Shown here piece by piece: positions 7,378 through 35,950 of a stretch of 64,000 nt of DNA. Where the stretch lies: assembly GCA_964439175.1 (NCBI GenBank), contig CAYTNQ010000004.1:8759-72758 (forward strand), in the 5' to 3' direction. This DNA is from an uncultured Anaerolineales bacterium (lineage in GTDB: Bacteria > Chloroflexota > Anaerolineae > 4572-78 > NAK82). Below the pieces are notes generated by a model. It did no database searches and was not told where the DNA came from. It saw only the letters and a list, made by a program, of their open reading frames with translations. The stretch's first letter is position 1. Each line of letters begins with the position of its first letter. Made by a program: the position numbers and the translations under genes.

Positions 7378-7432
7378 ATTGTAGCACTCTATCCTTAGAG
7401 AGCACTCAGAAGTTAATTAGAAATCAATTAGA
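7378..7432 (-). promoter_or_regulatory. Diverged copy of the shared promoter/operator cassette (upstream of the FG-GAP gene)
   Basis: The minus strand reads TCTAAT-TGATT-TCTAAT, then 32 nt, then TGC-TACAAT. The 11-bp repeat phasing and the 32-nt distance to an extended -10 box match the four stronger copies. Confidence 0.4.
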
Positions 7433-14523: not shown

Positions 14524-14539
14524 CGAGGCAATTCCTTGC

Positions 14540-16147
14540 TTATTTACGACGCCAGCCGCGCCACACCACAACTGCGCCTAAAATAACCATAGCGGAGGGC
14601 ACCAGGCTGGCAAATAACAGAAGTACGTCGTCGTTCTCTGTGTAGATCGAATTGGGGTCAAAACCGGATGAAGGGATTGAAAGCGACTTCACCGAAGCTG
14701 AAACCGGTGTAGCAATGGAAACGATTGCCGGTACAGGTACTTCCGTCGGAGTCGGTGAAGGCACAGGCGTAGGTAATAGGGGTATCTCGGGCGCATCCAC
14801 CTGAGCAGTGCTGAACCAAATCTGTCGGAAGCGGGCTGCCTCAGCGCTGAAGTCGCCCACCCACCAGACTGCATACAGACGGTTCCCCTGTCCAATGGCG
14901 ATTTTGGGATAATATGCATCGGCATACGCCGGACCTTCGGGTGCCTTATAGATCTGAGTTGGCCGCGACCAAGATATCCCATTCCATAGCAGGTGATACA
15001 CCCCTAGCCGATCACTCTCTGATCCCTCGCGCCCAACAGCGATCAGATGAAAGTTGCCGGCACTATCAACGGCCATATCATAAGCATCAAAGAGAGACAG
15101 TCCCGTTGTGACAAAGCCCGGGATCTTATCTGGCGGTGCCCATGAATGCCCACCATCAGTTGACCAAGTGTAGTAAACGGCTTGTCGGCTCCAGGCCTGC
15201 CACGCGGCCAACACCCGGCCCCGCCCGTCGCTGGCCGCCGCCAACTGAGAGTTTTTGCTCTCAGGATAGGAGAATACTGTGGGAGGCGACCACGTCTGCC
15301 CATCATCTGTAGAGAAGATGAGCACCCCATCGCTGGGATCTCCCTCCAACGCCAGGCGATCCCACCCTTCGTCCCAGGTAATGTAGATCGTGCCACTGCT
15401 GTCGATCTTAATCTGACCTCGTGTGGCGCCTACGGGCGAATTCGACAAATTCATGGGAGAAGACCAGTTACGCCCCCCATCCTTGGAACGACGGTAAAAG
15501 AGATCAGATAACAACTCAGGGTTTGCATCCTCGCTCTCTGGAACTTCAACGGGCACCCACTGGTCATAAATCAGGTGCACGGTCCCCTGGCTATCTACGG
15601 CAACATCGGACATGTAGGCCATTTCCCCACTCATGGGCCGGGGTTCAGACCAGGCGGTGGCTGACAGGGACTCCGATGCCAGTGCACGCATAAAGACGAC
15701 CTGCCATCCCAGGGCATGAGTCGCATAAATGTTTCCAGCCTGATCTGCGGTGATTGTCTCACGCAGAACCCCCCCACCCTGGCCTGTGGAGGCGAACACG
15801 TCGTTAGGTTCCGACCAGCGTCGACCATCCCAGACGCGATGCATCAGCTTGTAAGTGACCTGGTTAGTAAACGTGGTATTCTGCCCTTCCTCCGGCTGCA
15901 TCGTTTCCCAAACCACGTGGAGATTCCCCAGGTTATCAACAGTCAGGTCGGGGAACCAGGCCAGCGCCCCATCCTCAGATATCATTCGCGGCTGGCTCCA
16001 AGTAACAGGCTGCGGCCCCTGCGCCCGCGCGTTGGGCCAGCCCTCAACCGGCAGCCAGGCCAGCGTCCACGCCATCGCCAGGACAATCGCCAAGACTACT
16101 TGCACTACGGCGAGATACCTTCGAAAACGTTTGAATATCATACACAC
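14540..16147 (-). CDS. BNR/Asp-box repeat (sialidase-like beta-propeller) protein with C-terminal membrane anchor
   Basis: N-terminal signal/anchor. Asp-box motifs S-x-D-x-G-x-x-W appear three times (SKDGGRNWS, STDDGQTWS, STDGGHSWA). There is a Pro/Thr-rich linker (PLLPTPVPSPTPTEVPVP). A C-terminal TM helix is followed by WRGWRRK. Confidence 0.7.
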   Translation of the reverse strand: MCMIFKRFRRYLAVVQVVLAIVLAMAWTLAWLPVEGWPNARAQGPQPVTWSQPRMISEDGALAWFPDLTVDNLGNLHVVWETMQPEEGQNTTFTNQVTYKLMHRVWDGRRWSEPNDVFASTGQGGGVLRETITADQAGNIYATHALGWQVVFMRALASESLSATAWSEPRPMSGEMAYMSDVAVDSQGTVHLIYDQWVPVEVPESEDANPELLSDLFYRRSKDGGRNWSSPMNLSNSPVGATRGQIKIDSSGTIYITWDEGWDRLALEGDPSDGVLIFSTDDGQTWSPPTVFSYPESKNSQLAAASDGRGRVLAAWQAWSRQAVYYTWSTDGGHSWAPPDKIPGFVTTGLSLFDAYDMAVDSAGNFHLIAVGREGSESDRLGVYHLLWNGISWSRPTQIYKAPEGPAYADAYYPKIAIGQGNRLYAVWWVGDFSAEAARFRQIWFSTAQVDAPEIPLLPTPVPSPTPTEVPVPAIVSIATPVSASVKSLSIPSSGFDPNSIYTENDDVLLLFASLVPSAMVILGAVVVWRGWRRK

Positions 16148-16195
16148 CTCTCAAACGGTTAACCAATGCCAATTAACTAAACGCACCCTAACTCT

Positions 16196-17569
16196 TCAAT
16201 GCGTAAAGTCAGTTGACTGATGAGCAACGCTCATTTGTGATCTTAAAACACTGACGAGACCGTATGCAGCTACAATAATCAAGTAAGGATCAAAGGGAAG
16301 CCTAAAACGCTCTTTTCCATACAAGAGGAACGCTATGCCGATGTTAATAAATATCGGCAGAACTGGTAATATCATCACCGATATACGCCTCTTCACTGCT
16401 ATTACCAGCCCCAGAACAGCCAATATCAGTATGAGCCTAAATGACCAGACCCTCAGTTTCCCAATACCAGTGAGATATTGCGGTACATCATTCAATTGTG
16501 TAGGGTCGTAATCAGCAGGAGATGGCTCTCGTACCCCCCTATAACCGAGTGGCGGAGACAACTCCTCTCTTGGAATGATGGGGTATGATTTCAATAATCG
16601 TGAAGCACCGTAGCGAACGAACACAACAGGGTGAGAAACGATGAATTCCTTCGCCACCCTCGAAAAATAGCGGTCCCGCTCCAATTCAGAAGCCTCATTA
16701 AAGTTTGGCATAGCGTCGCAATATTTCAATCCTTTCCCACATTCTTCCCATCCAGATGAAGTTTCAAGCATATATCGCAGCCAGTTCCCCTCCCACATGG
16801 ACCATCTCTTGTTTGGAAACACAGTGGGCTCACCCTGAACACGCCAGTTTCTAACTGCCCACGGCCCGACTGTGACGATAAACATGAGCGAAGCCAAGCC
16901 TATGCCAAGAGAGACACTACGTAGGGCGTTTTGCCTTCGTTTCAAGGTCCACCAAAAGGCAAACACCACCATTACTACCGCAAAGGCCAAAATCTCTGGC
17001 CTGACCAGGAAGGTCAGCCCGAACAGAGCCCCCCAAATGATAAAGTGAATATGTCGGAAGGTTCCCAACGCAAATTTGACCAAGAATAGCATAATCAACG
17101 ACACCAAAAAAGAATAAAGAGTCTCAGTCATAATGGGACGAGTGTACATGACGAGCGGCGGATATACACATACAATTAAAGCCGCCAATAGGCCCACAGA
17201 CTCTCCTAAGACCTTCCTGGCGGTAAGAAAGGTAACGACACATACGCCAGCGCCAAGCACGACTTGCAGTAATCTAACAGCAAGATAGCTTTCGCCGAAA
17301 AGGTAGAACAATACAGATAATATTATGGGGTAAACAGGTGGCTGGATGGAGGTTGGTGTGTTGGCATCGGCCACAAAGATATCGAAGCTTAAGGAGAGGC
17401 CACGACCCTCAACAATGCTCTTGGCCAGGTCAATATAGATGTATTGATCATGTAAAGAGTCATAAATACGTTCATCGGCACCAAGGGTGATAATGAAAAG
17501 CAAACGAACAATGAGTGCAAGGATAAAAATGGAGATTGAGATTATCAAAGCCCGATTCTTAGCAAGCAT
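16196..17569 (-). CDS. GT-C fold membrane glycosyltransferase (ArnT/PMT_2-like)
   Basis: Has about 10+ hydrophobic helices. The early loop reads DERIYDSLHDQYIYIDLAKSIVEGRGLS, and the helix pattern is typical of GT39/GT83 family proteins. ATG 17569 has a GGGGAAGG SD; the listed 17590 start is a TTG. Spot counts give about 42-43% GC. Confidence 0.6.
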   Translation of the reverse strand: MLAKNRALIISISIFILALIVRLLFIITLGADERIYDSLHDQYIYIDLAKSIVEGRGLSLSFDIFVADANTPTSIQPPVYPIILSVLFYLFGESYLAVRLLQVVLGAGVCVVTFLTARKVLGESVGLLAALIVCVYPPLVMYTRPIMTETLYSFLVSLIMLFLVKFALGTFRHIHFIIWGALFGLTFLVRPEILAFAVVMVVFAFWWTLKRRQNALRSVSLGIGLASLMFIVTVGPWAVRNWRVQGEPTVFPNKRWSMWEGNWLRYMLETSSGWEECGKGLKYCDAMPNFNEASELERDRYFSRVAKEFIVSHPVVFVRYGASRLLKSYPIIPREELSPPLGYRGVREPSPADYDPTQLNDVPQYLTGIGKLRVWSFRLILILAVLGLVIAVKRRISVMILPVLPIFINIGIAFLLYGKERFRLPFDPYLIIVAAYGLVSVLRSQMSVAHQSTDFTH

Positions 17570-17634
17570 GCATCTACCTTCCCCGTACAAAGCTGTCCAA
17601 GCATCTGGTTAGCGGCCAGGCTTTACAGAAACCA

Positions 17635-18399
17635 TCACGGCCCTCTACCTTCACCACTATAAAGAACAGGCCGAGCAACTGGACTTCTCTCCCCAAACAG
17701 CGCCATCCGCATCACATAACTAAAAGCCTCGATCACAATCCTGAAAGACATCTTTGATTGGCCGACCCGCCGATCTTCAAAAATGATCGGAAACTCTGAG
17801 ACTCTCCCCCCTAGACGCTCAACATAGTAAACGGACCCTACCTGAAAGGCATAGCCCTTCAATTGCATCTCTTGCCAAGGCACTTTCTGTAGCAACTCAC
17901 GGCGATAACATCGAAATCCGCCGGTGCAGTCTCGGGTTTTCAGCCCCAACATCAAACGAGCAAAGGTGTTACCCCCACCGCTGATCAGTTTGCGCAGCGC
18001 CCCCCAGTTTTGCGTGCCCCCCCCTTTTACGTAGCGCGAGCCGATGACCAGGTCGGCCAAGGCAATCTCTTCCAAAAACCCGGGCAAATAGCGAGGGTGA
18101 TGAGAAAAGTCGCAATCCATCTCCAATACATAGTCATACTCTCCGGCTAACGCCCAGCTAAACCCCGCGACATAAGCCGTCCCCAGGCCCATCTTCCCAG
18201 GGCGGTGGATGACATGCACGGCAGGCAGTTCTGCCGCCAACCGGTCCGCAATCTCTCCTGTGCCGTCTGGAGAGTTGTCATCAATCACCAGGATGTCAAA
18301 GCCACAGTTCTGGGCTAATATGGCAGAAACCAGCGGAGCGAGGTTTTCTGCCTCGTTATAAGTAGGAACAACGATGAGTGCACCAGCATGTTTTGTCAT
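17635..18399 (-). CDS. Polyprenol-phosphate mannose synthase-like GT2 (Ppm1/Dpm1 type)
   Basis: ALIVVPTYNEAENL, ILVIDDNSPDGTG, GLGTAYVAGF and EMDCDFSHHP blocks are characteristic of soluble Dpm1/Ppm1-type GT2 enzymes. About 255 aa. Confidence 0.75.
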   Translation of the reverse strand: MTKHAGALIVVPTYNEAENLAPLVSAILAQNCGFDILVIDDNSPDGTGEIADRLAAELPAVHVIHRPGKMGLGTAYVAGFSWALAGEYDYVLEMDCDFSHHPRYLPGFLEEIALADLVIGSRYVKGGGTQNWGALRKLISGGGNTFARLMLGLKTRDCTGGFRCYRRELLQKVPWQEMQLKGYAFQVGSVYYVERLGGRVSEFPIIFEDRRVGQSKMSFRIVIEAFSYVMRMALFGERSPVARPVLYSGEGRGP

Positions 18400-18417
18400 T
18401 TTCTTCTCACCCAAGAA

Positions 18418-20106
18418 TTATTGCAGCGTACCGTCTTCGACACGATAAATACTTACGTTTGAGTTAGAGAAGGCCAGGGTAAGCCATGGCGAAGTCATAG
18501 GGTCATAGGCTCCTCCTTCACGTTCAGCGGGACCAAAGAAGACGTAGCGAATGCTGTATTGCTGGACTATCGCCTGCCGCTCAGCATCGGGTGTGGCCGG
18601 GTCAAAGAAATCTTCCACTATTTCCCGCTTGTGATTGAAGTCTATCGTCATCACGGCATTGGCCAGGAAAGCCCTATTCCCGGCTAAGCCGGGGATATAG
18701 TGCCCCGTCACAAATGCGCTAAGCACTACTTGGTCCGGGTTGGCATTTAACTCAAGCCAGCGCATGGCGGCCACTTCGTCCCGATGCAGATAGAAAGGAT
18801 AGGTGTAACGATGCAAATCCACGAAGCGCCAGGCAAACAGGTAAAGATTAGTCGGCAGGACCGCCAGCAACAGCAGGGCCGGCACCCACTGCACCAGCCG
18901 CTCTCTGACCAGCCATCGCTGCCACCGCTCCTGGCCCCATCGGGCTTCCAGCCAGGGGATGAGACGGTCGAACACAAAGTCGGTCGCCATGGCTGCCAAC
19001 ACGAACTGAAAGCCAGTTAGCAGCATCACCTGAAAACGCAGAGGAAGATAAATGATCAGCAGATTGACAATAAACCAACCCTTGAGAAAGAGATCACGAT
19101 TGGACTGCCCACGCAAGAGACTGGTCTTGGGCATCTCGAAGGAGCCCAGCCCTCGCACAAACCCACCCAGTGCCAGAAATAGGGGGATGCCTAACAGCAC
19201 CAACAAGTGCAATGGAGAAGGCGTAAAGGCCCCCAGGTTATCGTACTGCGCCAGCGCTCGCTGCCAGGTCGGGTTGGCTGACGACGATACCCAGCCAAAA
19301 TAGAGCGGAGCTGGGGCCGATACCAACACCACCACCGCCAGGCTGGTGAAGGTATGCCAGCGGAAGCCATCACGCAGGGTCAATAGAAGCCCGAACACAC
19401 CCAACACTGTCCATATCGTCACCAGGTCGTAAATGTGACCTAACCCCAAAAAGAGCGCCACTCCTGCCGCCGCCAGCGACAGGCCGAACCGGCCCCGCTG
19501 ATGCCCCAGCCACGCCAGACCCAAAGCCAGCAACATCAGCGCCAGCGCCAACGCCAGGTGAGGCGAAGCCAGCAAAACCCAAAAGGTGTTGCCGGGTGTG
19601 GTATAGATATCGTGGGGCCAACGTACGTCCGAGAGACCGTTGAGGTACTTGTCAACAATCCAGATCCAACCCAAGCCAGAGCTCAAAGTAGTCAGCCAAA
19701 ACGCGAGACGCCGCCGAGCCGGTTCGGCGAAAAACAGACTGGACAGCCAATACGCCACACTTACATACAATGGCACGGCTAACAGGCGGAAGAGTTGATA
19801 CACCTGCCTCAGCGACAGTCCGAATAGCTCTGCCGCCCGCCCCGGAATCCACCAATGCAGGTTGACAAAGACAGAGGGGTTAGGCTCCGAAGTCAGCTTG
19901 TTCTCAATGAAAAAGCGCGCGCCCGATTCACGCATCCACGACAGGTATTGTGCCGTGTCATGGACGTTGAAGATGACGCCACTGAACCACTTATCTGGTG
20001 GTGCCGACAGGTAGCCATAAACGTAGGGCAACGAGGTAACCACCAGCAACACCAGTGAAGCAATGGCCACCTCGCGCAGAACCTCGGTTTTCAGCCCACT
20101 GCTCAA
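18418..20106 (-). CDS. Large polytopic membrane protein, GT-C-like (function putative; start uncertain)
   Basis: More than 10 predicted TM segments plus a C-terminal soluble domain, embedded between GT-C genes. The listed ORF (to 20325) overlaps the upstream gene by 223 nt. A TTG at 20106 forms a TTGA overlap with the upstream stop. Confidence 0.4.
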   Translation of the reverse strand: MSSGLKTEVLREVAIASLVLLVVTSLPYVYGYLSAPPDKWFSGVIFNVHDTAQYLSWMRESGARFFIENKLTSEPNPSVFVNLHWWIPGRAAELFGLSLRQVYQLFRLLAVPLYVSVAYWLSSLFFAEPARRRLAFWLTTLSSGLGWIWIVDKYLNGLSDVRWPHDIYTTPGNTFWVLLASPHLALALALMLLALGLAWLGHQRGRFGLSLAAAGVALFLGLGHIYDLVTIWTVLGVFGLLLTLRDGFRWHTFTSLAVVVLVSAPAPLYFGWVSSSANPTWQRALAQYDNLGAFTPSPLHLLVLLGIPLFLALGGFVRGLGSFEMPKTSLLRGQSNRDLFLKGWFIVNLLIIYLPLRFQVMLLTGFQFVLAAMATDFVFDRLIPWLEARWGQERWQRWLVRERLVQWVPALLLLAVLPTNLYLFAWRFVDLHRYTYPFYLHRDEVAAMRWLELNANPDQVVLSAFVTGHYIPGLAGNRAFLANAVMTIDFNHKREIVEDFFDPATPDAERQAIVQQYSIRYVFFGPAEREGGAYDPMTSPWLTLAFSNSNVSIYRVEDGTLQ

Positions 20107-21740
20107 GACCGGGGCTGCAACCCACGTCCTTCCCTTCGAACGATCCAAAACACGCCTCCTGGAACCAAAATCAGGGGGAACAAACTGTACCAGGACGATA
20201 GCCCCACCATCATCCCCAGATTGCGGGTGATATCGCCAGCCCAGAACTTGGGCCAAAAGAAATCGACCAGCGGGTTGCCGATGATGACTGGCGCGAACTC
20301 TTGCCCCGAGACTGACGCAATCCACACCAGCCCAAACGAACTAACCACCAGGCCCCAGGTCAACATCCGCCACAGAGGCTTCTCTCGCCAGGTCCAGACA
20401 CAGAAAGCGACCGGCAGCATCAAAAAGGGCAAAATGGTCAGCAGATTGCGCGGCCCGATGGCGTAGCCACCACGCCAATCATACCAGGCGGAAACTAGTG
20501 CCAGTTGCGCCAGCACCAAACTCAGCCAGAGCACCGCTTCGCCCCGCCACCTGGGCGAGCGGAGAAGATACCAGAAGCCGGGTATCGCCAGCAACAAAAA
20601 GGGCGATAGGAAGAACAACCCCCGGTAGGGACTGAACGTAACCCCCCACAACGCTTCCAGGCTGGGCCGACTGAAGCCGAGAAAGCCGGTGTTAGAAATT
20701 TCCGGAAAACGCCCCAGGTAACGGTAGCTCGATGAAAAGGGGCTGCCAAAGGCAGAGGCATTGTACCAACCCAGAATCAGGGCAAAAGGCAATCCCCCCA
20801 GGCCGAGCTTGGCGATCTCCCACTTCCGCTCCAGAAACCAAAGGGCATACAGCGACAGAATAACCAGCAGGATCAGGGCCGGGAACTCAGTTAGCACGGC
20901 CAATCCTAGCAGCCCCCCTACCCCCCACAGCCAATGATGGCTTATCTCACACTGCCGGATACGATAGAGCAAATAAAAGGCAAAAAAGAGTAACGCGGCA
21001 GCAATTTGATGGCCATAAAAAACGGACGAGTAGGGGAAGACAATGGTCGCCAACCCGTAGGCGAGGGCCAAAATGACTCGCCCCAGGGTATGCTCGGATT
21101 TCGGGGCGAACCCTCCCGGCAGGTTGACCACGCCCGTCCAGCGACCATTGCCGTCCAGGGTATGCTCGGATTTCGGGGCGAACCCTCCCGGGGCGCCCAA
21201 TGGTCTCCCCCTCGGGGCAGGCCTGTGCAGGGGACCATTGGGCGCTCCAGAAGGATGTGTCAAGGTAGGAGTAAATAACCGTCCCATAAAAAGATAAAGC
21301 AACGCAGCCAGCAGGGCCGAAGGGAGGGAGACCGTGACGAAAGTGGTGGCGTAGAGAGCCGCTGCAAAGTAGACCTTTTGCTCCAGCAGCCCGGTGCCTC
21401 CTTCGCGCAGTGTACTGGCCAGGGCCTGGCTGCCACTTAGCCGATGCAATATGGCTCGCATCGGCGGCGTGTCGGCCACCAGCCTGAAGACAAAATACGT
21501 CGGCACTCCCAAGAATGAAGTACCGGGGGCTTTGTCGGTATAAATGTGGTCACCGTAGACGGCATAGTCGCCTGTATTCTCATAATAGTCATCAATGTGT
21601 AGTACCCCTCGCTCTACGATGGCCAACGTCAGATCCATGCGCGAGTTCTGGTTCCACTCCGCCCAACGTGGGAAGAAGTAACCGTAGCAAAAAAGCAAAA
21701 CAAAGAATATTAGTAAGGCAACTCGTTTTTCTCTGGTCAT
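20103..21740 (-). CDS. Polytopic membrane protein, GT-C-like, carrying an in-frame repeat-derived insertion
   Basis: Start preferred at ATG 21740 (MTREKRVALLIFFVLLF). The first loop, WNQNSRMDLTLAIVERG..YTDKAPGTSFLG, and multiple TM helices are GT-C-like. The loop GAPGGFAPKSEHTLDGNGRWTGVVNLPGGFAPKSEHTLGRV is encoded by repeat DNA. Confidence 0.45.
   Translation of the reverse strand: MTREKRVALLIFFVLLFCYGYFFPRWAEWNQNSRMDLTLAIVERGVLHIDDYYENTGDYAVYGDHIYTDKAPGTSFLGVPTYFVFRLVADTPPMRAILHRLSGSQALASTLREGGTGLLEQKVYFAAALYATTFVTVSLPSALLAALLYLFMGRLFTPTLTHPSGAPNGPLHRPAPRGRPLGAPGGFAPKSEHTLDGNGRWTGVVNLPGGFAPKSEHTLGRVILALAYGLATIVFPYSSVFYGHQIAAALLFFAFYLLYRIRQCEISHHWLWGVGGLLGLAVLTEFPALILLVILSLYALWFLERKWEIAKLGLGGLPFALILGWYNASAFGSPFSSSYRYLGRFPEISNTGFLGFSRPSLEALWGVTFSPYRGLFFLSPFLLLAIPGFWYLLRSPRWRGEAVLWLSLVLAQLALVSAWYDWRGGYAIGPRNLLTILPFLMLPVAFCVWTWREKPLWRMLTWGLVVSSFGLVWIASVSGQEFAPVIIGNPLVDFFWPKFWAGDITRNLGMMVGLSSWYSLFPLILVPGGVFWIVRREGRGLQPRS
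21083..21191. repeat. 72-bp-period tandem duplication inside the GT-C-like CDS
   Basis: The 37-nt string CCAGGGTATGCTCGGATTTCGGGGCGAACCCTCCCGG occurs at 21083-21119 and again at 21155-21191. The period is 72 bp (24 codons), so the duplication is in frame. Confidence 0.85.
21190..21248. repeat. Palindromic (REP-like) element inside the CDS
   Basis: GGGGCGCCCAATGGTC (21190-21205) is a 15/16 reverse-complement match to GACCATTGGGCGCTCC (21233-21248). The G/C-rich core reads CCCCTCGGGGCAGGCCTGTGCAGGGG. The right arm and core recur at about 21849-21890 in the 5' leader of the same gene. Confidence 0.8.
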
Positions 21741-21919
21741 TGTCTCGTTAGTTGTGAGTACACCCAGTTTTTCGGGGTGAACCCTCCTGCAGGTTTTGGC
21801 TGAATAAGCTGCGACTTTTAACAGCAACCTGCCCCGTGGGGGGCTTTCCCCTGTGCAGGCCTGCCCCGAGGGGGGACCATTGGGCGCTCCGGGAGAGTGT
21901 GCTCTAAACCGCTGCTAAG

Positions 21920-21975
21920 ACTTTAGCATAGGATAGTAGGAACTCAATGTGAGACTAGTTAGAAAAAAGTTAGAG
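21920..21975 (-). promoter_or_regulatory. Shared promoter/operator cassette, copy A (upstream of 20103..21740 unit)
   Basis: The minus strand reads TCTAAC-TTTTT-TCTAAC-TAG-TCTCAC-A-TTGAGT-(16 nt)-TGC-TAAAGT. It is 50/55 identical to copy B. Confidence 0.6.
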
Positions 21976-21989: not shown

Positions 21990-23120
21990 TCATCTTGAAT
22001 TCGGTACGTAAGACGACGCTGTCCGAATAGCTTTCACAATACGTTGACTGGCGCGACCATCACCATAAGGATTGGCCCCTTGAGCCATACGCTGATAAGC
22101 CAGCCCATTCTCCAGCAAGGTAACAACCTCGCTGACAATGGCCTGTTCATCCGTGCCAACCACCTTGACCACGCCAGCCCCCACCCCCTCCGGGCGCTCA
22201 GTAACCTCACGCAACACCAGCACTGGCACTCCCAAACTGGGTGCTTCCTCCTGCAAGCCACCAGAGTCGGTCAGGATCAGATAAGCTTCGCTCATCAGCC
22301 GGACAAAGTCGTAGTAACCCAATGGCTCCATCAAGGTGATATTAGGAATATTCCCCAGCATCTCATGCACCGGTCCGAGCACATTGGGATTAGGATGCAC
22401 CGGATAGACAAGCTGAACACCTCCGGGATAGAGAGCAGCGATTTCAGCCAAGGCGCGACAGATGCGCATCAAAGGCCGGCCGAAATTCTCACGCCGATGG
22501 GCGGTGACCAGGATAAGCCGACGGCCATTGCTTGTCCATTGTCGAGAGGAATCCTCCTCCTGCTTCAACCGGCAAACAGTCATCAATAAAGCGTCAATGA
22601 CCGTGTTGCCAGTCACCACAATGGCTGATTCGGGTACTCCTTCACGCAGTAGATTCTGCTTGCTGCCCTCGGTCGGCGCAAAGTAGAGATCAGCCAGCAC
22701 ATCAGTGAGACGACGGTTTATTTCCTCAGGATAAGGCTGCCATTTATCGTTGGTGCGCAGGCCGGCCTCCACGTGTCCTACCCGAGCCTGATGATAGTAA
22801 GCGACCAGGCTGGCAACCATTACTGTGGTGGTATCTCCCTGCACCAGCACCCAATCGGGCCGTTCCTGAGCCACGACTTGATCCAGGCGAGTCAGAACGT
22901 TTGCCGTGAGCTGCGATAACGTTTGACCCGGCAGCATAACGTCCAGATCGTAGTCGGACTGGATGTCGAAGATATTCAATACCTGGTCGAGCATCTCCCG
23001 ATGTTGGGCCGTGGCGCAGTTCACCGATTGGATTTCGCCGGGGTATTTCTCCAGTTCCTTGATGACCGGGGCCATTTTGATGGCCTCTGGGCGAGTGCCA
23101 AAAACAGTGAGGACTTTCAC
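21990..23120 (-). CDS. wecB: UDP-N-acetylglucosamine 2-epimerase (non-hydrolysing)
   Basis: N-terminus (M)KVLTVFGTRPEAIKMAPV, plus the DSGGLQEEAPSLGVPVLVLREVTERPEG block, at 376 aa. These are hallmarks of WecB/MnaA. The GTG start forms a GTGA overlap with the upstream stop. Confidence 0.9.
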   Translation of the reverse strand: MKVLTVFGTRPEAIKMAPVIKELEKYPGEIQSVNCATAQHREMLDQVLNIFDIQSDYDLDVMLPGQTLSQLTANVLTRLDQVVAQERPDWVLVQGDTTTVMVASLVAYYHQARVGHVEAGLRTNDKWQPYPEEINRRLTDVLADLYFAPTEGSKQNLLREGVPESAIVVTGNTVIDALLMTVCRLKQEEDSSRQWTSNGRRLILVTAHRRENFGRPLMRICRALAEIAALYPGGVQLVYPVHPNPNVLGPVHEMLGNIPNITLMEPLGYYDFVRLMSEAYLILTDSGGLQEEAPSLGVPVLVLREVTERPEGVGAGVVKVVGTDEQAIVSEVVTLLENGLAYQRMAQGANPYGDGRASQRIVKAIRTASSYVPNSR

Positions 23121-24367
23121 CTTTGCTCTCCATGGGCTGTACGAATCCAGGTTACCGGCTTACTGCCAAAACGCGCAGCCAGTGCCAACCAGGTTCGCCA
23201 AAGAATAAAAAGCGGCCCTGACAGAATCGCCAGGTAAGCCCTAAGCGGAGCTTTCTCCAAAGCCAGGCCGATAAGCGGATAGACAAAAAGTACGCCCATA
23301 ACCGCCGCCCATGCGCCGACGACACCCCATGCGAAGATTGGACCAACCAGCCAATTGGCCAACACCTGAATCGCCAGAGACATGGCACTTATCATCGTGA
23401 GCGTCGAATAGGAGGGAAGATAGGCTTGAAGCGCACCGTCCAACAATGCCATATCTCGACGCTTGATTCCTTCCATCAGCAGGAGGCGCGCGAACTGCTG
23501 GCTGGCATCGCGCGTACCGCGCAGCCAACGTGCCCGTTGCGCTCGGGCCTGGGCCCAGGTGCGAGGTGCTTCACCATAGCCTATCGCAGCCGGTTCGTAA
23601 GCAATTTTGATACCTTCCAGGAGAAGTCTTTGGCGCAACTGGTAGTCCTCCGTCAGACCTTCCCCCCAGCCTATTTTGTGTAGTACATCGGCACGAAAGC
23701 AGATTGAGTCGCCCATATGCTTGGCCGACCAACCAAGATTGGAACGACCAAGGTTCTGAAACCTATTGTCAACCAGGAACATCGCCCACGTCAACGCTGG
23801 AAACCAACCGCTTTCAGGATTACTAATGACGTGCTGTCCCTGGATCACTTGGTCACCCTGGGCCAAGCGAGCGTCCATAACACGCAAAAAATTGGGATCG
23901 ACTTGCGTATCAGAGTCAAAGACCACAACGGCATCACAATTATCATCCAAGATTTGTTGGAACAACCAGGAGAGGGCTGCTCCCTTGCCATTTCTGGGAC
24001 CCTCATTGCGCTCATGCACAACCGCGCCAGCCCGACGTGCCAGAGCCGCAGTATTGTCCGAACAATGATCCGCTACAATGTGGATACTGAACAAGTCCGC
24101 TGGATAGTCTAGTGTGTGCATTCGCTGGACTGTGGCTTCAATAACATTCGCCTCATTGTGAGCTGGGATGGCAATGATGAAACGATTCGATGGACGCCGG
24201 CCGCGTATTGCCTGTAGCGATACAGGACGTACCAATCCCAATACAAGGAGAAGCAAATATCCCAAAGGCAAAACGCTAATAAGCAAAGCAATTAGAGAAA
24301 CAGTTGTCACAATCTCCATCACAATCCCCCACCCTATCCGGGTAGAAAGCCAATGACGACAGGTCAC
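23117..24367 (-). CDS. Membrane-embedded synthase-type GT2 glycosyltransferase (PgaC/IcaA/NodC-like)
   Basis: N-terminal TM, then FIIAIPAHNEANVIE, VVFDSDTQV (DxD) and QRARWLRG (the Q-x-x-RW motif of processive GT2 synthases). C-terminal TM helices follow. Confidence 0.7.
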   Translation of the reverse strand: MTCRHWLSTRIGWGIVMEIVTTVSLIALLISVLPLGYLLLLVLGLVRPVSLQAIRGRRPSNRFIIAIPAHNEANVIEATVQRMHTLDYPADLFSIHIVADHCSDNTAALARRAGAVVHERNEGPRNGKGAALSWLFQQILDDNCDAVVVFDSDTQVDPNFLRVMDARLAQGDQVIQGQHVISNPESGWFPALTWAMFLVDNRFQNLGRSNLGWSAKHMGDSICFRADVLHKIGWGEGLTEDYQLRQRLLLEGIKIAYEPAAIGYGEAPRTWAQARAQRARWLRGTRDASQQFARLLLMEGIKRRDMALLDGALQAYLPSYSTLTMISAMSLAIQVLANWLVGPIFAWGVVGAWAAVMGVLFVYPLIGLALEKAPLRAYLAILSGPLFILWRTWLALAARFGSKPVTWIRTAHGEQR

Positions 24368-24368
24368 C

Positions 24369-25523
24369 TCATCCTATATGAGATGACAGATCACTCCCAT
24401 TTTCCACCTTGTCCAACATCAGCAAGGCATCGATGAAGAACTTTACGGCCCAGTTAGGATATTTGAAACGTTCGTACCGGCCATAGATCGGGTAAGACCC
24501 TGCAACGGCCCCTCGGACATTAGGATTAGACGTTTTCAAATTCTGGGTGCGGGCAACGAATGCGATGGCCTTCTTGGCGGCGGCGTAGTAAATCGGATTG
24601 CTGCCGGTCTCATACAAACGCAGCCATAGATGGCTCATCTGACAATTACCTGTCAGACAACTCGAAGAGCTTGTCGCGCGCCACGCTGAGCCATAGGTAC
24701 TGGCCAAGCTACCATCAGGGCACTGGCAGGCCAAAAGCGCATCGGCCGTCAGTTGGGCTGCTTCAACATAACGCGCCTCATTAAGCAACAAGCCACACTC
24801 AAATAGCCCCTCGGCCGTATAGGCCAGCGTGTGAGTGAATGGATCCTCCCCTTCAACGAAGGCGCAGTGCCGGAACCAGCCATCAGCATCCTGTTGCTGC
24901 TTCGCCCATTCCAGGTTACGCACGGCTGCTTGGCGATAGGTATCCCGACCAGCGTACCAGTGTAGCTCGAGCAGTGCCCACGCCACGCGCGTGTCGATCA
25001 CCTTTTCCACATCCAGGTACTGATAATTCTTCCAGGAACCTGAGGAATGCTGGACTGAGACTAGCCAGTCGCCAGCACGCATTGCCACATCCAGGTATCG
25101 CTCGTCGCCGCTCGCCTCAAAGGCAGCCAACCAGCCAAATATCACCTGGCCCGTATCAAATACAATAGGATAGGCTCTCGAACTTGCCCAATGCTCCACG
25201 CCGCCATCGGGCGTCGTGCTTTTCAGCAGATAATCAGCCAGAGAGAGAGCCAGTGTCCGCAAATCAGGGCGGTCAAGCACCACTGCTGCGTTAAGCAAGG
25301 TCGGAATTGTGTATCCAGTTGTCTCAGGGTAGGACGGGAACCAACGACTGCGCAACAGGTGGTAGCCTTTTGAGATGCCGCTACGACCAGCCTTAGCATA
25401 AGCGAGCCGAATCCAGTCAATCGCCGCATTCAAGCGATCCTTTATCTGCAAACCATCTGTAGACAATACGCCAGGCCCACGCAACCCAACCCAAACCTCC
25501 TGGAACGCTGAAAGATCGACCAT
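24369..25523 (-). CDS. Alpha/alpha-toroid-like protein (prenyltransferase/terpene-cyclase or six-hairpin glycosidase-like fold), function unknown
   Basis: Repeated helical-hairpin pattern with Trp/Gly-rich turns (GGVEHWA, SGSWKNY, DADGWFRH, CPDGSLAS). No signal peptide or TM. The fold call is pattern recognition only. Confidence 0.3.
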   Translation of the reverse strand: MVDLSAFQEVWVGLRGPGVLSTDGLQIKDRLNAAIDWIRLAYAKAGRSGISKGYHLLRSRWFPSYPETTGYTIPTLLNAAVVLDRPDLRTLALSLADYLLKSTTPDGGVEHWASSRAYPIVFDTGQVIFGWLAAFEASGDERYLDVAMRAGDWLVSVQHSSGSWKNYQYLDVEKVIDTRVAWALLELHWYAGRDTYRQAAVRNLEWAKQQQDADGWFRHCAFVEGEDPFTHTLAYTAEGLFECGLLLNEARYVEAAQLTADALLACQCPDGSLASTYGSAWRATSSSSCLTGNCQMSHLWLRLYETGSNPIYYAAAKKAIAFVARTQNLKTSNPNVRGAVAGSYPIYGRYERFKYPNWAVKFFIDALLMLDKVENGSDLSSHIG

Positions 25524-25579
25524 CTTTTTTATGTCCTTCCTGACACCAGCCGCTGACAGCTAACTCGACGGGATGATCT

Positions 25580-26620
25580 TTACGAACTTCCTTGATTTGC
25601 GAATGTCTTCAAAGGAGTTTGTGCAATCCCAGTAATTAGCTTCCACATACGGCGAACGGGCCAAATAACTGAACGCCCCCACATCACTGAGAATCGAGGT
25701 ATTAAACGTCCCCCGAATCCTCTGAAAAAGATTTCTACACTGGGTACATCTGATCCATCAAAGTCGAATTCCGTTACACCGATTTCTTCGTTGCAGAAAC
25801 GTATGCACTCCCACAGTAGCAAGGCCATACAATTTCCACTGGCAATGTCTCGATTCATCCCGCTTAGGAGATAATACGCTCTTTTATGATCCCAAACCAA
25901 GATCGCTCCAGCGCAAACTCTACCAGAGGTGTCCTTGATTTGGAGAAACTTTGCTCGGTTCTTTGTCGATATTGCTGTGTACCAACTCCGGATCTCCCCA
26001 ACTCTACCCAGTATTAAGCGTTTGTTGTGAGTTGCCAAAGAGTGCATCAAGAGCGGAAAAAACTCATCCAGATTATCGCTCAATTCACACGATAGTCCTT
26101 CTTCATAGCCTTTTCTGATCTTGCGCCTCCTGTCCTGATTCAGATCCTTCCATACGCGGTCCATATCGTCTAGTTCAATAACATACGTATACTCAATATT
26201 TACATTGAATCCGTTCTGCTGGAACGGTTGTATATCCATCTGGTTAGGGGAAAGAGGTATCCTGATGAAATCACAAAAGGTCGTAACGTGATGAATCAAC
26301 GATAAAGCAATCTCTTTCTCCAATGTCAACGCTCGGTGGTACTTTCCGTCTGTCTTACTTATCACCGGACCCAGATAGGGGGTCAGATAAGGTGGCCTGG
26401 CAACCGTCAACCCCGCTATCTGCTGGTACAACAAGGGCATACCTCCAGTAAGCACTCCAGCTTCATTGTAACAACCGACCACAGCAATTGACCTGCCAAA
26501 CGACTTCAACCAGTGAGTCTGGTGAAACAAAGTTCCGCTTTCTGAAGTCTCGACAAAATCATCCCAAAGTTCATAATCATCCTCAGGCAATAGCCTGGAT
26601 TGATACTTATATTCGGACAT
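25580..26620 (-). CDS. FemAB/GNAT-like acyl- or aminoacyl-transferase (Acetyltransf_6-like)
   Basis: The N-terminal block YELWDDFVETSESGTLFHQTHWLKSFG and the C-terminal block AGAILVWDHKRAYYLLSGMNRD resemble FemAB-like or BioF2-like GNAT proteins found in glycan loci. ATG 26620 has a TGGAGG SD. GC is lower than its neighbours. Confidence 0.5.
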   Translation of the reverse strand: MSEYKYQSRLLPEDDYELWDDFVETSESGTLFHQTHWLKSFGRSIAVVGCYNEAGVLTGGMPLLYQQIAGLTVARPPYLTPYLGPVISKTDGKYHRALTLEKEIALSLIHHVTTFCDFIRIPLSPNQMDIQPFQQNGFNVNIEYTYVIELDDMDRVWKDLNQDRRRKIRKGYEEGLSCELSDNLDEFFPLLMHSLATHNKRLILGRVGEIRSWYTAISTKNRAKFLQIKDTSGRVCAGAILVWDHKRAYYLLSGMNRDIASGNCMALLLWECIRFCNEEIGVTEFDFDGSDVPSVEIFFRGFGGRLIPRFSVMWGRSVIWPVRRMWKLITGIAQTPLKTFANQGSS

Positions 26621-26689
26621 AGTCAATTGCCTCCATATATTTCTAGCATCAAGCAACGCATGTTGTAGACAGATTGTAACTACTCAGCT

Positions 26690-26787
26690 ACCCTTGCGAA
26701 GGTTGCGAATAGCTTTGCACACAGGGCAATTTTCGGTAGGCCGGGACACTTTCGCTCTGAAAATTCTTACCAAACCTTCGCAAGGGT
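26690..26787. repeat. Intergenic long hairpin element (15-bp stem, 68-nt loop), sibling of 51355..51454
   Basis: ACCCTTGCGAAGGTT (26690-26704) is the perfect reverse complement of AACCTTCGCAAGGGT (26773-26787). An outer CTACTCAG/CTGAGTAG pair extends it. Confidence 0.8.
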
Positions 26788-26847
26788 TATCTGGCCTGAG
26801 TAGTAACGACAGATTTTCGAATAATTGTGACCAAGGACTCCGTAGAT

Positions 26848-27756
26848 TTACAGAGAAGGAAGCACACGCAGCAAATCCAAATACAAACGCGAACGTTGGG
26901 CGACTTGACTTGATTTCCCTAAACCCATGATACCCCACGCTACACGTGTTAGAACCGTAACAAAAAGGATAAGTTTGTAAACCCAACTCCCCCACTTTCC
27001 TCTGGTCTTTCGAAAGAACAAGACTTTGCTGTGGTGCAATTCTAGAAACATCTCTCTTACAGCCTGACACGTGCTTTGTCCACCATAGTGAATGATCCTT
27101 GCCATAGGCACCCAGTAAATTAGTAATCCTGCCTGCAGCAGGCGATAGCACAAATCTACTTCTTCGGTGAACATGAAGAATGCTCCGTCCAACAACCCGA
27201 TGTTTGCCAATACTTTGCGACGAACAAGCATACAATTGCCTTGAATCACCTCAACAGTATGCGCTATTGTAGTGTCCCAGTTTTCTTCTCTGTAAACAGA
27301 TCGTACCAGGAAATGGTCCAAGTGCATAAGTCGCCAGAATTCCCGCCATAATGTTGGCATGGGATCACAAGAGGACTGAAGCGTAAAATCTGGATTGAGA
27401 ATCATCGGGCCAATAGCCCCTGCTTCAGGATGTGTTTCAATGAAATCTATAAGCGTTTGCAAGGTGCCCGGGAGGATTTTCGTGTCTGGGTTCAGCAAGA
27501 GCACAAGACGTCCTAAACTCTTCTTGATAGCTTGGTTGTTTGCCCGAGCAAATCCTACATTCTCGGTGTTTTGGATCAAACGCACCTGTGGGAACCGCGC
27601 TCGCACCATCAGAGCACTGTCGTCGCTGGATGCGTTGTCCACCACCAACACCTCAAATTCACCCCCTGGCGGGTGAGCATAGACCGATGCCAGGCACTGT
27701 GCCAGCATATCGCGTGTGTTCCAATTGACGATGATAATACTCATGTCAGGTTGCAT
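26848..27756 (-). CDS. GT2 family glycosyltransferase (rhamnosyltransferase-like)
   Basis: SIIIVNWNTRDMLAQCLASV, VVDNASSDDS and LLLNPDT blocks of the GT2 GT-A fold. 302 aa. Confidence 0.75.
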   Translation of the reverse strand: MQPDMSIIIVNWNTRDMLAQCLASVYAHPPGGEFEVLVVDNASSDDSALMVRARFPQVRLIQNTENVGFARANNQAIKKSLGRLVLLLNPDTKILPGTLQTLIDFIETHPEAGAIGPMILNPDFTLQSSCDPMPTLWREFWRLMHLDHFLVRSVYREENWDTTIAHTVEVIQGNCMLVRRKVLANIGLLDGAFFMFTEEVDLCYRLLQAGLLIYWVPMARIIHYGGQSTCQAVREMFLELHHSKVLFFRKTRGKWGSWVYKLILFVTVLTRVAWGIMGLGKSSQVAQRSRLYLDLLRVLPSL

Positions 27757-27768
27757 AAGCTGTCTTTC

Positions 27769-29127
27769 CTACAGGGGAATGGCACGAGTGACCAACTCCA
27801 GCCCTTCTTGACCGAAGCGTACCGTGTACCCTGCGTCCAGTATACGGGCCTGGGCGGCCAGCAGATAGCGACGGAAAGGGCTATCACTGTCAGGATCTGC
27901 CATGTCCAACTCCCACTGCTCCATCCTGGCCTCTTTTTGCAACGGCAGCAGTACATGGCGGGCAGCATAGTAATCGAGGGCAATTGGATCCACGCCTGCC
28001 AGCAGCGAGCCCTGGCGAGGCGACATCTCGTAGGTGGCATCTTGGGTACGATTCCCATGGATGCCGACGAAAGTCGCGTCCACCAGGTTCAGGGTGGGGA
28101 AACGCAAGGTCATCAAGAGGCCGGGCAGCCCGGGAGGCAGGCCATTGAATGACTCGGTCAGCGCAGCATGGAATGAGAAGCTATCGGGATCTACACCCGC
28201 TTCGGCCGCGCCGACCCGCTTGCCCATCACACCCAAGAAGTTCTTGACGGCGGCGGTGACGCCAAACCAGCCGTGAGCCTTCAAGACTGGCAAGTTGATG
28301 AATTTCAGCCGGGCTGCGTCGAACTGGTGACTATTCCAAATGCCATACCGCAGACTGACCCGTGTACCGTAATCTGTAACGAATTTGGGGTAATTGAGGG
28401 GATAGGGCCCGGCCATAACATAGCCCTCGCGTTCGTCTCCCTCGTCCCACTCGCCGACCTGTTCGCGCAGCGGGGCCCAATTGTAAAGCGACACTTGATA
28501 ACCAGCAGCGGCAAACATATCTACTACGCGCTGGTACGATTGGGAATGGTCGGGAAACTCGTCATTGTTGGTAGATGGTTCGGCCAGGTGATGCCTGGAC
28601 ATCTGGCCATTTTCAACGACAACCACTTCGCCCGTGAACCCATCGGGATGGTCAAGCAGCCGCCGAATCAAACCACGCACTACGTCGGTGTTGGTCATCC
28701 CCCGCTGCTCCCATTGGGCATTGACTTTGACCAATACCACATCTTCCGGTCCAATCAGGCCGTTGGGGCCATTGCGAAGGCCATTCCGAGGGCTGCGGTA
28801 AAACTTGAGGTCATGCTCACCCATCAGGTCGAGCATTGCATCCACACCCGCGTGGTTCGCCTGCCAGTCTGCATCCGGTGAGTAAGCTGGTTGCCAGCCG
28901 GGCCTAGAAGAGTTGTCTATACGGAAAACTGCCGATTGCCCCATCACCTGAGGCGCAGGCGGCAACGGCTTGACGCTAAGTTGCTTCAAGATCTTGGCTG
29001 CCAGCCCTTGCCAGCGGCGCCGAGGCGGTTCAAGTAAGACCGACACGCCACACGCACCGGCAACCACTAGTCCACCTGCGACCATGCCCAGAAACCTTCT
29101 CCTGCTGATCTCCCTCAACTTAGCCAT
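27769..29127 (-). CDS. Tat-exported DUF362 domain protein (second paralogue)
   Basis: Twin-arginine signal SRRRFLGMVAGGLVVAGA. DUF362-like blocks include VVLVKVNAQWEQRGMTNTD and FINLPVLKAHGWFGVTAAVKNFLG. Confidence 0.7.
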   Translation of the reverse strand: MAKLREISRRRFLGMVAGGLVVAGACGVSVLLEPPRRRWQGLAAKILKQLSVKPLPPAPQVMGQSAVFRIDNSSRPGWQPAYSPDADWQANHAGVDAMLDLMGEHDLKFYRSPRNGLRNGPNGLIGPEDVVLVKVNAQWEQRGMTNTDVVRGLIRRLLDHPDGFTGEVVVVENGQMSRHHLAEPSTNNDEFPDHSQSYQRVVDMFAAAGYQVSLYNWAPLREQVGEWDEGDEREGYVMAGPYPLNYPKFVTDYGTRVSLRYGIWNSHQFDAARLKFINLPVLKAHGWFGVTAAVKNFLGVMGKRVGAAEAGVDPDSFSFHAALTESFNGLPPGLPGLLMTLRFPTLNLVDATFVGIHGNRTQDATYEMSPRQGSLLAGVDPIALDYYAARHVLLPLQKEARMEQWELDMADPDSDSPFRRYLLAAQARILDAGYTVRFGQEGLELVTRAIPL

Positions 29128-29139
29128 TTCACCGCTGCC

Positions 29140-30567: not shown

Positions 30568-30570
30568 ATG

Positions 30571-31776: not shown

Positions 31777-31780
31777 GTTG

Positions 31781-32695: not shown

Positions 32696-32763
32696 TGAGC
32701 CTCCCTTGTCAGCCCTAGCCCCTATACAGCAACCCCTCGCAGACTCGCTCGCCAGGTTTGGAA

Positions 32764-33462: not shown

Positions 33463-33478
33463 GCCGCAAGAGCATGTC

Positions 33479-35892: not shown

Positions 35893-35950
35893 ACTCTAAC
35901 ATAGGATAATAAGAACTCAATGTGAGACTAGTTAGAAAAAAGTTAGAAAG
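35893..35950 (-). promoter_or_regulatory. Shared promoter/operator cassette, copy B
   Basis: The minus strand reads TCTAAC-TTTTT-TCTAAC-TAG-TCTCAC-A-TTGAGT-(16 nt)-TGT-TAGAGT. It ends 52 nt upstream of ATG 35841. Confidence 0.6.

Follow-up and report, generated by a model that had tools for sequence, protein, structure and literature searches.

A conserved promoter cassette of four phased half-sites at envelope-glycan and surface-protein genes of Anaerolineae, with an OmpR/KdpE-like response regulator as its candidate activator

Introduction

Among the promoters that resemble the element described here, the closest are those controlled by OmpR/PhoB-family response regulators. OmpR and RpaB use half-sites of the GTTACA type, while the pho box of Escherichia coli and the PhoP promoters of Bacillus subtilis carry two boxes (four half-sites) of head-to-tail repeats that reach into the -35 region. 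SARP activators join an OmpR-like DNA-binding domain to a BTAD domain, and their heptamer repeats end 8 bp from the -10. An UP element is A/T-rich DNA at -40 to -60 that has no invariant G/C positions and occurs at strong promoters generally, and excisionase-type helix-turn-helix (HTH) domains can bind direct repeats. The operator of KdpE is made up of a pair of 6-bp direct repeats on either side of an AT-rich 5-mer, TTTATA-N5-TTTACA (PMC3264566); Streptomyces PhoP sites are as a rule built of 11-nucleotide (nt) direct-repeat units (PMC2275107); and tandem OmpR/PhoB-type dimers, tetramers, and hexamers that lie over the -35 and displace the sigma-R4/-35 contact are structurally documented (PMC11825685). 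Here, we analyze a 56-nt cassette that occurs five times in a 64,000-nt stretch of DNA from an uncultured Anaerolineales bacterium (contig CAYTNQ010000004.1 of assembly GCA_964439175.1), the whole of which we refer to as the window. The cassette is a real and coherent regulon signature of a textbook class, the response-regulator promoter with tandem phased half-sites. From comparisons of sequence and gene context, we consider it probable that the cassettes are activator-dependent promoters of an OmpR/KdpE-like response regulator, RR-B, and that they constitute one regulon.

Anaerolineae are abundant, mostly uncultured filaments of sediments, anaerobic digesters, and activated sludge, and their surface polymers matter for flocs, granules, and bulking. 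Transcription control in this group is almost wholly uncharted. A literature search returned no relevant paper on the TCTAAC motif or on promoters of Chloroflexi or Anaerolineae with response-regulator or two-component control, and the motif, its coupling to an extended -10, the regulon, and the regulator family are all undescribed in the literature searched.

Results and discussion

Five copies of one cassette in a glycan locus

By Pfam annotation, the window is a nearly unbroken minus-strand glycan locus. An earlier reading made from its letters without database searches (the sequence-only reading) had placed a promoter/operator cassette at five positions in it, one ahead of each minus-strand transcription unit. 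All five are confirmed, as a pattern scan with TCTAAY-N5-TCTAAB yielded exactly five matches in the 64 kb (7416-7432, 21958-21974, 35931-35947, 46171-46187, and 53384-53400), every one on the minus strand, where 0.01 would be expected by chance; 0/100 shuffles of the window gave five. An independent repeat search ranked the same 55-nt family first among the direct repeats of the window (copy A 100%, B 93%, C 82%, D 60%). The strong likeness of A and B that had been claimed therefore stands, although their identity is 51/55 rather than 50/55. We then scanned the window with a weight matrix of 56 columns built from the cassettes, which scored A-D at 72-78 bits and E at 33 bits, with the rest of the window below 8 bits and no shuffle reaching 0. 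Since all five copies align ungapped, the distance from repeat 2 to TGnTAnnnT is identical in each of them, just as had been proposed. The copies are all intergenic, with a minus-strand start codon 52-93 nt downstream, within the 50-180 nt suggested earlier, and each faces the first gene of a block. Their parts are listed below, with R1 to R4 denoting the successive half-sites; the start positions are predicted, with TAnnnT taken as -12 to -7.

7378-7433, minus strand: cassette E (four-repeat form); R1 7427-7432 TCTAAT, R2 7416-7421 TCTAAT, R3 7405-7410 TCTGAG, R4 7394-7399 TCTAAG; extended -10 TGCTACAAT 7378-7386; predicted start ~7371
21920-21975, minus strand: cassette A; R1 21969-21974 TCTAAC, R2 21958-21963 TCTAAC, R3 21947-21952 TCACAT, R4 21936-21941 TCCTAC; -35-like TTGAGT 21942-21947; extended -10 TGCTAAAGT 21920-21928; predicted start ~21913
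35893-35948, minus strand: cassette B; R1 35942-35947, R2 35931-35936, R3 35920-35925 TCACAT, R4 35909-35914 TCTTAT; -35-like TTGAGT 35915-35920; extended -10 TGTTAGAGT 35893-35901; predicted start ~35886
46133-46188, minus strand: cassette C; R1 46182-46187, R2 46171-46176, R3 46160-46165 TCACAT, R4 46149-46154 TCCTAT; -35-like TTGGGT 46155-46160; extended -10 TGCTAGATT 46133-46141; predicted start ~46126
46195-46235, minus strand: symmetric hairpin between the PD40 gene at the end of block D and cassette C; -29.6 kcal/mol, z = -5.8
53346-53401, minus strand: cassette D ('type 2'); R1 53395-53400 TCTAAC, R2 53384-53389 TCTAAG, R3 53373-53378 TCTCAC, R4 53362-53367 TATGAT; without a -35 hexamer; extended -10 TGTTAGACT 53346-53354; predicted start ~53339

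Cassettes A and B lie 15-25 nt past the stop codon of the gene before them on the same strand, and no terminator intervenes; a generic terminator scan of the window found no more sites than in shuffles. The hairpin ahead of cassette C had been described as a terminator; the hairpin itself is real, but it lacks a U-run and is not called by the terminator scan, and it is probably a terminator or an insulator. An apparent added similarity upstream of D and E (CACATAG...GGGTAGTGG) was discarded because it is not an alignable block.

The cassette contains four phased half-sites coupled to an extended -10

The sequence-only reading described two direct repeats with 11-bp phasing and a separate TCTCAC element, and assigned the repeats to an UP-element or activator site at -45 to -65. 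Invariant T's 22 and 33 nt past the first T of repeat 1 are a hint of further phased repeats. When metagenome contigs were scanned with a pattern fixing only R1, R2, and TGnTA, at least 120 loci were obtained, and the 117 distinct cassettes among the matches listed agree with TCTAAC at a mean of 5.7, 5.7, 3.8, and 3.7 of 6 positions at offsets 0, 11, 22, and 33, respectively, against a background of ~1.5 of 6 and with no signal at offsets -11, -22, or +44. The general form is thus [TCTAAC-N5]x4, then N7, then TGnTAnnnT. Its half-sites fall at ~-61/-56, -50/-45, -39/-34, and -28/-23, and their 11-bp spacing places all of them on one helix face; R4 ends 10 nt ahead of TAnnnT in every cassette. 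Of the earlier description, the 11-bp phasing is retained, whereas the number of repeats is four rather than two, and TCTCAC, which is indeed present, is the third phased half-site. In place of a two-repeat site at -45 to -65, we find half-sites that extend to ~-23 in the tandem-box geometry of OmpR/PhoB-type promoters. The L108 cassette has four near-perfect repeats (TCTAAC-ttttt-TCTAAC-ccttt-TCTAAC-ccttt-TCTAAC-caaagtg-TGCTAAAAT), and near-perfect four-repeat cassettes likewise occur in L063, L087, L154, L061, and L039.

The window holds three subtypes. Cassettes A-C are 'type 1', in which R3 is TCACAT, R4 is TCCTAY or TCTTAT, and a TTGAGT-type -35 hexamer lies between the degenerate R3 and R4; as had been noted, TTGAGT or TTGGGT stands 16 nt upstream of the -10 hexamer in these three. 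Cassette D represents the widespread 'type 2' (R3 TCTCAC, R4 TATGAT, no -35 hexamer). Cassette E had been called a diverged copy, but it is not simply that: its half-sites (TCTAAT/TCTAAT/TCTGAG/TCTAAG) are those of a four-repeat form. The -35 hexamer is absent in D, E, and most cassettes of relatives; A-C keep one and so look like a mixed form. TGn and the TAnnnT hexamer are present in 5/5 window copies.

The cassette is conserved at orthologous sites in relatives

The window sequence is present in sediment, mangrove, and marsh metagenomes, and its closest relatives are ~80% identical to it at the nucleotide level in coding regions. An exact scan with the 19-mer TCTAACTTTTTTCTAASTA over one genome per GTDB species gave 26 matches, 17 of which belong to 11 metagenome-assembled genomes (MAGs) of Chloroflexota (Anaerolineae/Caldilineaceae). 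All 17 score at least 50 bits over the full 56 nt, and the roughly nine matches in other phyla score 20 bits or less, which marks them as chance. A cyanobacterial origin, which the style of the repeats had suggested, was rejected on the strength of these Chloroflexota/Anaerolineae matches. Among 20 Chloroflexota instances picked by the 19-mer only, TA...T follows exactly 27 nt later in 20/20, and TG is also present in 18/20. The cassette occurs in dozens of metagenome contigs as well.

Three genomes share the divergent intergenic region between the aldehyde dehydrogenase and HAD genes, and cassette D is the sole conserved block in it, with 52/56 positions invariant. Such a phylogenetic footprint speaks against the cassette being a mobile repeat or the product of recent duplication. 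The ortholog of cassette C precedes the same gene in L009, L059, and L104. It had been suggested that the motif be sought in relatives, where a generic repeat should be scattered in random orientation; instead, it is conserved across species before the same gene classes and is not randomly oriented. We also rejected a mobile miniature repeat (of the miniature inverted-repeat transposable element or repetitive extragenic palindrome kind), as the cassette occupies the same orthologous site in three genomes and keeps a steady orientation to the downstream gene; terminal inverted repeats were not specifically searched.

An OmpR-type response regulator tracks the cassette

According to Pfam annotation, the 64-kb window encodes neither a response regulator nor any other classical transcription factor, and the candidate comes from relatives. 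Contig L014, from the same MAG as the closest syntenic relative of the window, has the order cassette, hybrid GAF-GAF-PAS histidine kinase, OmpR-type regulator with REC and Trans_reg_C domains (RR-B), cassette, and Bac_transf. RR-B is translationally coupled to the kinase and has cassettes on both sides. Its orthologues (74-79% identical) lie directly upstream of a cassette and Bac_transf in L021 and L022. As an independent test, seven loci were picked by RR-B homology only (L027, L029, L031, L033, L034, L035, and L036) and scanned with the matrix, and in 7/7 a type 2 cassette was found immediately ahead, on the same strand, of either the kinase-regulator operon or just the regulator. L027, L031, L033, and L034 carry the cassette at the regulator operon with no glycan genes nearby, so the cassette is linked to the regulator and not merely to glycan loci. 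In L029, L035, and L036, further cassettes stand ahead of Bac_transf and the HAD gene, and the order HAD, hexapeptide transferase, GT2, radical SAM, and PD40 matches block D of the window, down to the divergent aldehyde dehydrogenase; the gene order of block D thus recurs downstream of the regulator locus in relatives.

The RR-B family comprises >120 protein clusters at least 66% identical, the named sources of which are Anaerolineae or Chloroflexota. It carries the JGI label 'KdpE', which is a best-hit name only; E. coli KdpE is the nearest solved relative of RR-B (E = 6e-45, end-to-end alignment); RpaA is likewise among the top solved relatives. At the positions of the KdpE contact residues R193 and T215, RR-B has K and A, as would fit a half-site of another sequence. 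Across 120 protein clusters, the recognition helix and wing of RR-B hardly vary, matching the invariance of the half-sites.

Cassettes precede envelope-glycan, surface-protein, and signalling genes

We then examined the placement of the cassettes on metagenome contigs; the counts in this section are all among the matches listed. For 56 of the 72 cassettes with enough flank, a same-strand open reading frame (ORF) of at least 150 aa starts within 350 nt downstream. The median distance from hexamer to downstream ORF is 72 nt, only 2/72 cassettes are inside a long ORF, and 24/72 are in divergent intergenic regions, as are D and E of the window. The first downstream proteins of ~120 cassettes were clustered, and annotation of the cluster representatives gave the following classes.

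19 cassettes, on other contigs: giant FG-GAP/PKD/DUF11/DUF7507 surface proteins
15 cassettes: GmhB-like HAD phosphatases
11 cassettes: Bac_transf priming transferases
11 cassettes: histidine kinases
8 cassettes: response regulators, one of them REC-GGDEF
5 cassettes: DnaK-like HSP70
4 cassettes: PD40 proteins
4 cassettes: HTH-fused BY-kinase

Other downstream genes encode GT4, GT2, UDP-glucose dehydrogenase, BNR, hexapeptide transferase, C25-type peptidase, and FtsX/MacB proteins. Judged from these annotations, the regulon is one of cell-envelope glycan, surface proteins, and its own signalling genes. The earlier proposal of a dedicated, oriented, promoter-linked regulon signature heading each minus-strand glycan block is supported both by the placement of the cassettes and by their gene context across species. 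The four-repeat geometry prompted us to consider a Pho regulon, which we rejected, as no pst, pho, or Pho-type phosphatase genes lie downstream of the ~120 cassettes.

Several individual arrangements were also observed. A DnaK-like HSP70 gene adjoins the regulator locus in L033 (58-1992), L035 (2515-4419), L036 (2218-4122), L081, and L120, and its cassette is of the four-repeat form without TG (TCTAAC-N5-TCTAAC-N5-TCTAGT-N5-TCTAAC-N7-CTTTACAAT), so that the chaperone appears to be part of the regulon. Upstream of Bac_transf, cassettes occur in tandem: a half copy consisting of the repeats without the -10 starts 54 nt before the full copy in L035 (10816-10925), L036 (10846-10955), L080, and L130, while L011 (3695-3921) has two full cassettes 171 nt apart. 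These tandem arrangements suggest extra regulator occupancy at that promoter. Genes for an NTP_transferase, a SIS isomerase or GHMP kinase, and a GmhB-like HAD phosphatase lie near type 2 cassettes (L029 11106-13438; L035 12515-14346 and 17334-17942; window 52655-53287) and resemble the nucleotide-activated heptose pathway; since the window has only the phosphatase, the remainder of such a pathway must lie elsewhere in its genome. Directly behind the four-repeat cassette of L087, a REC-GGDEF response regulator (diguanylate cyclase) is encoded at 285-1250, which hints at a link of the regulon to cyclic di-GMP signalling.

Transcript data and points against RR-B-dependent activation

Transcript data were available for one relative, H5_CFX7, as assembled metatranscriptome contigs rather than reads, and covered two cassettes (L021 and L006). 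At the L021 cassette, which lies between RR-B and Bac_transf, contigs of two runs start at the same base, 18 nt past the hexamer, and one of those two runs has zero depth over the cassette. Depth downstream is 1.3-1.6 times that upstream in three runs.

Several results weigh against the proposal that the cassettes are RR-B-activated promoters. Contigs of the other runs cross the L021 cassette, and at the HAD cassette of L006 contigs cross in all four runs, although with assembled contigs only, read-through or DNA in the libraries is inseparable from initiation. A generic sigma-70 scan found no more sites than in shuffles and left the cassettes uncalled, in which 8/12 sigma-70 consensus positions and the TG are matched. 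A tblastn search of the 64-kb window found no homologue of RR-B or of its paralogue RR-A (E > 0.6). The metagenomes of the window do contain RR-like contigs ~80% identical, but their depth of 45-76 compared with ~16-21 for the window provides no link. RR-A (43% identical to RR-B) adjoins RR-B in 7/7 of the RR-B-homology loci and is itself a candidate, and activation as opposed to repression is judged from position only. We therefore infer, rather than observe, that RR-B binds and activates the cassette, that transcription starts at the predicted positions, and that RR-B is encoded in the window's own genome.

Comparison with described systems

The cassette displays 6-bp head-to-tail repeats at 11-bp spacing and a proximal box ~10 bp before the -10, as in tandem-repeat promoters of the OmpR/PhoB family, and a linked regulator with REC and Trans_reg_C domains is found in relatives (L014, L021, L022, and the 7/7 loci), though not inside the window. 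With E. coli KdpE at kdpFABC it shares the 6+5+6 geometry (TCTAAC-TTTTT-TCTAAS) and a position upstream of the core promoter. It differs in the half-site TCTAAC, in having four half-sites instead of two, and in the substitution of both KdpE contact residues. It is also not a Kdp system, because the neighbours of the regulator are GAF/PAS kinases, not KdpD, together with Bac_transf and glycan genes, and glycan and surface genes take the place of a K+ pump as targets. The PhoB/PhoP promoters of E. coli, B. subtilis, Streptomyces, and Mycobacterium tuberculosis are alike in their head-to-tail 11-bp tandem repeats, in the autoregulation that is predicted for RR-B, and in two boxes (four half-sites) that run into the -35 region with the proximal box ending ~10 bp before the -10. 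In contrast to these, the >100 cassette-linked genes among the matches listed include no pst, pho, or phosphatase gene of that system, the half-site is TCTAAC, the sequence of RR-B is closer to KdpE than to PhoB, and the cassette has an integral conserved extended -10.

Cyanobacterial RpaB/HLR1 and enterobacterial OmpR sites are also OmpR-family direct repeats, and the cassette half-site read on the opposite strand, GTTAGA, is 5/6 identical to GTTACA; the phylum, regulon, and repeat number are different, however, and the cassette is coupled at a fixed distance to a TGn -10. Unlike SARP activators, the linked regulators have REC and Trans_reg_C only, with no BTAD, and the repeats end 10 nt from the -10 hexamer. 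JUMPstart/ops-RfaH elements are similar as short conserved elements that head long polysaccharide clusters and co-ordinate them, but ops is in the transcribed leader and acts on elongation, whereas the cassette is upstream of the -10 and the linked protein is a response regulator, not a NusG paralogue.

A candidate mechanism and its alternatives

We propose that phosphorylated RR-B, an OmpR/PhoB-family, KdpE-like regulator partnered with the cytoplasmic GAF/PAS histidine kinase, would bind the half-sites head-to-tail. It would take the invariant R1-R2 first, with high affinity, and then spread cooperatively to R3-R4, and the bound regulator would recruit RNA polymerase to the extended -10 promoter. 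At D, E, and most cassettes of relatives, which lack a -35 hexamer, a tetramer on R1-R4 would replace the -35 contact in the manner of PhoB/PhoP-type activators. At A-C, with their degenerate R3/R4 and TTGAGT-type -35, an R1-R2 dimer probably assists polymerase on its own -35 hexamer. RR-B would autoregulate its operon through the same cassette, giving a switch-like response. The five blocks of the window's locus would form one regulon with the genes behind cassettes in relatives, spanning the priming transferase, glycosyltransferases, a sugar-nucleotide pathway of the heptose type, export by the Wzy/BY-kinase and ABC routes, and giant surface proteins.

RR-A (229-267 aa), the OmpR-type paralogue, might bind the cassette in place of RR-B or together with it, for example by cassette subtype. 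Besides its constant adjacency to the RR-B operon, RR-A-like regulators (~53% identical) occur in contigs with four near-perfect repeats (L039, L082, L095, and L115), and the RR-A recognition helix YLRLYISYLRRK is nearer to that of KdpE. Nevertheless, RR-A is not preceded by a cassette in the RR-B-homology loci, and on the 7.3-kb contig L014 it is not next to the cassette-flanked kinase-RR-B unit. As RR-B, not RR-A, is the one that is kinase-coupled and cassette-flanked on both sides, we think it improbable that RR-A is the factor.

We attach little weight to a factor-independent promoter, in which a weak extended -10 would be boosted by the T-tract and the phased A/T-rich repeats, serving as an UP element or as intrinsically curved DNA. 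The region from ~-61 to -45 is A/T-rich with a T6 tract and sits at the UP-element position, where the C-terminal domain of the RNA polymerase alpha subunit binds, ahead of an extended -10 box, but the C positions of TCTAAC are invariant and the repeats continue to -23 in strict 11-bp phase. Furthermore, the cassette is confined to envelope, surface, and two-component genes, rather than strong promoters generally, and co-occurs with one regulator family.

The sequence-only reading had instead named the C-terminal HTH of the BY-kinase as a speculative candidate for the factor. This gene (44209-46059, minus strand) encodes a Wzz/GNVR/P-loop protein with a C-terminal HTH_17 domain of the excisionase/MerR type (residues 554-599). 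The fusion is real (E = 2e-10), recurs downstream of type 1 cassettes in L009, L059, and L104 as well as in the window, four genomes in all, and is of a type that could bind the direct repeats. However, L011 has cassettes and a Wzz protein without the HTH, and the regulator loci L027, L031, L033, and L034 have cassettes but no HTH-fused kinase within 20 kb. In addition, four head-to-tail 6-bp half-sites at 11-bp spacing that abut the -10 are an OmpR/PhoB-type signature. A gene downstream of a cassette is a target and not necessarily the factor, and with the OmpR-family regulator tracking the cassette in 7/7 loci, it is very unlikely that the kinase HTH is the protein that reads it.

Equally hard to credit is a post-initiation signal, that is, a leader RNA or a signal in the non-template strand (for antitermination, pausing, or processing, for instance) of the JUMPstart/ops kind, since despite the short distance of A and B from the preceding stop codon and the metatranscriptome contigs that span cassettes in the relative, a gathering-threshold Rfam scan of the whole window gave no match, the three ops (GGCGGTAG) matches in the window are at chance level, all inside genes, and none near a cassette, the conservation is an 11-bp DNA-face periodicity ending in TGnTAnnnT rather than a structured-RNA pattern, and the cassettes in divergent regions (D, E, and 24/72 among the matches listed) have no upstream same-strand gene to read through.

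Significance

Taken as RR-B-dependent promoters, the cassettes supply a defined promoter/operator, a candidate two-component system, and a predicted envelope-glycan and surface-protein regulon, all of which can be tested with purified protein and synthetic DNA and require no culture. The cassette is also useful as an annotation aid, as it marks transcription-unit boundaries in very long glycan loci. A bolder conjecture, to which we give only a small chance, is that the cassette and the GAF/PAS kinase-regulator pair are a lineage-wide master switch for the whole outer surface of filamentous Anaerolineae, with the subtypes grading the order of activation and the HTH-fused BY-kinase feeding back on type 1. 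If true, the switched surface would include glycan, giant adhesin-like proteins, PD40 and DUF11 proteins, the DnaK-like chaperone, and the REC-GGDEF protein; the graded subtypes would be the four perfect repeats, the conserved type 2 core, and type 1 with its own -35 hexamer; and the HTH-fused BY-kinase would be a second, polymer-sensing input on type 1 promoters.

Gene blocks of the window and other observations

The sugar enzymes of the locus include many GT2 and GT4 proteins, a Wzy-like polymerase, three PMT_2 proteins, and a UDP-GlcNAc 2-epimerase, and the locus also encodes two Wzm/Wzt ABC exporters, a HAD phosphatase, a radical SAM enzyme, and PD40 and BNR proteins. The blocks behind the five cassettes are as follows.

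2816-7311, minus strand: block E; giant 1,500-aa FG-GAP/PKD/Big_1 surface protein, likely start ATG at 7311 with an AAAGGA ribosome-binding site
12925-21827, minus strand: block A; two proteins without Pfam hits, GT2, PMT_2, BNR, PMT_2; start codon of the first gene uncertain
21990-35841, minus strand: block B; GT4s, hexapeptide transferase, GT2s, Wzy-like polymerase, DUF362, GNAT/FemAB-like protein, UDP-GlcNAc 2-epimerase
35973-46059, minus strand: block C; Wzz/GNVR/P-loop BY-kinase with C-terminal HTH_17, Wzm, Wzt, phosphodiesterase, Asn-synthase-like protein, two GT4
46331-53287, minus strand: block D; HAD (GmhB-like) phosphatase, 157-aa ORF, hexapeptide transferase, GT2, radical SAM, PD40 protein

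The first ORF of block A is without a Pfam hit and contains a perfect 37-nt direct repeat at 72-nt spacing (21083-21119 and 21155-21191), and a 30-nt stretch of the same ORF (21230-21259) recurs at 87% identity at 21872-21901, between cassette A and the presumed TTG start; as a result, the true start codon and leader of this gene are uncertain. Upstream of cassette D, a second conserved block, ATA(T)ACCACAAAAA...TTGTGAA, is found at 53470-53500 of the window and at ~4040-4070 of L001, and on the plus strand it resembles a promoter, TTCACA-N17-TGGTATATT, that would serve the divergent aldehyde dehydrogenase gene (53586-55154). Outside the blocks, a 991-aa ORF (56480-59455, minus strand) combines an N-terminal PMT_2 domain (GT-C type), a weak CBM53 hit, and a C-terminal ABC-2 (Wzm-type) permease, and adjoins a Wzt ATPase with a Wzt_C domain (55196-56479), which makes it a second ABC-type export route beside that at 42153-44207. 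Lastly, near-identical cassette copies are longer than the typical assembly word and may fragment or mis-join short-read assemblies. In run X1, a Logan contig is mis-joined at cassette C, passing from 46188 to 43000, and contigs of X1-X3 have loose ends at cassette D (53401-53402), the joins and ends being noted over 46158-46188 and 53358-53402.

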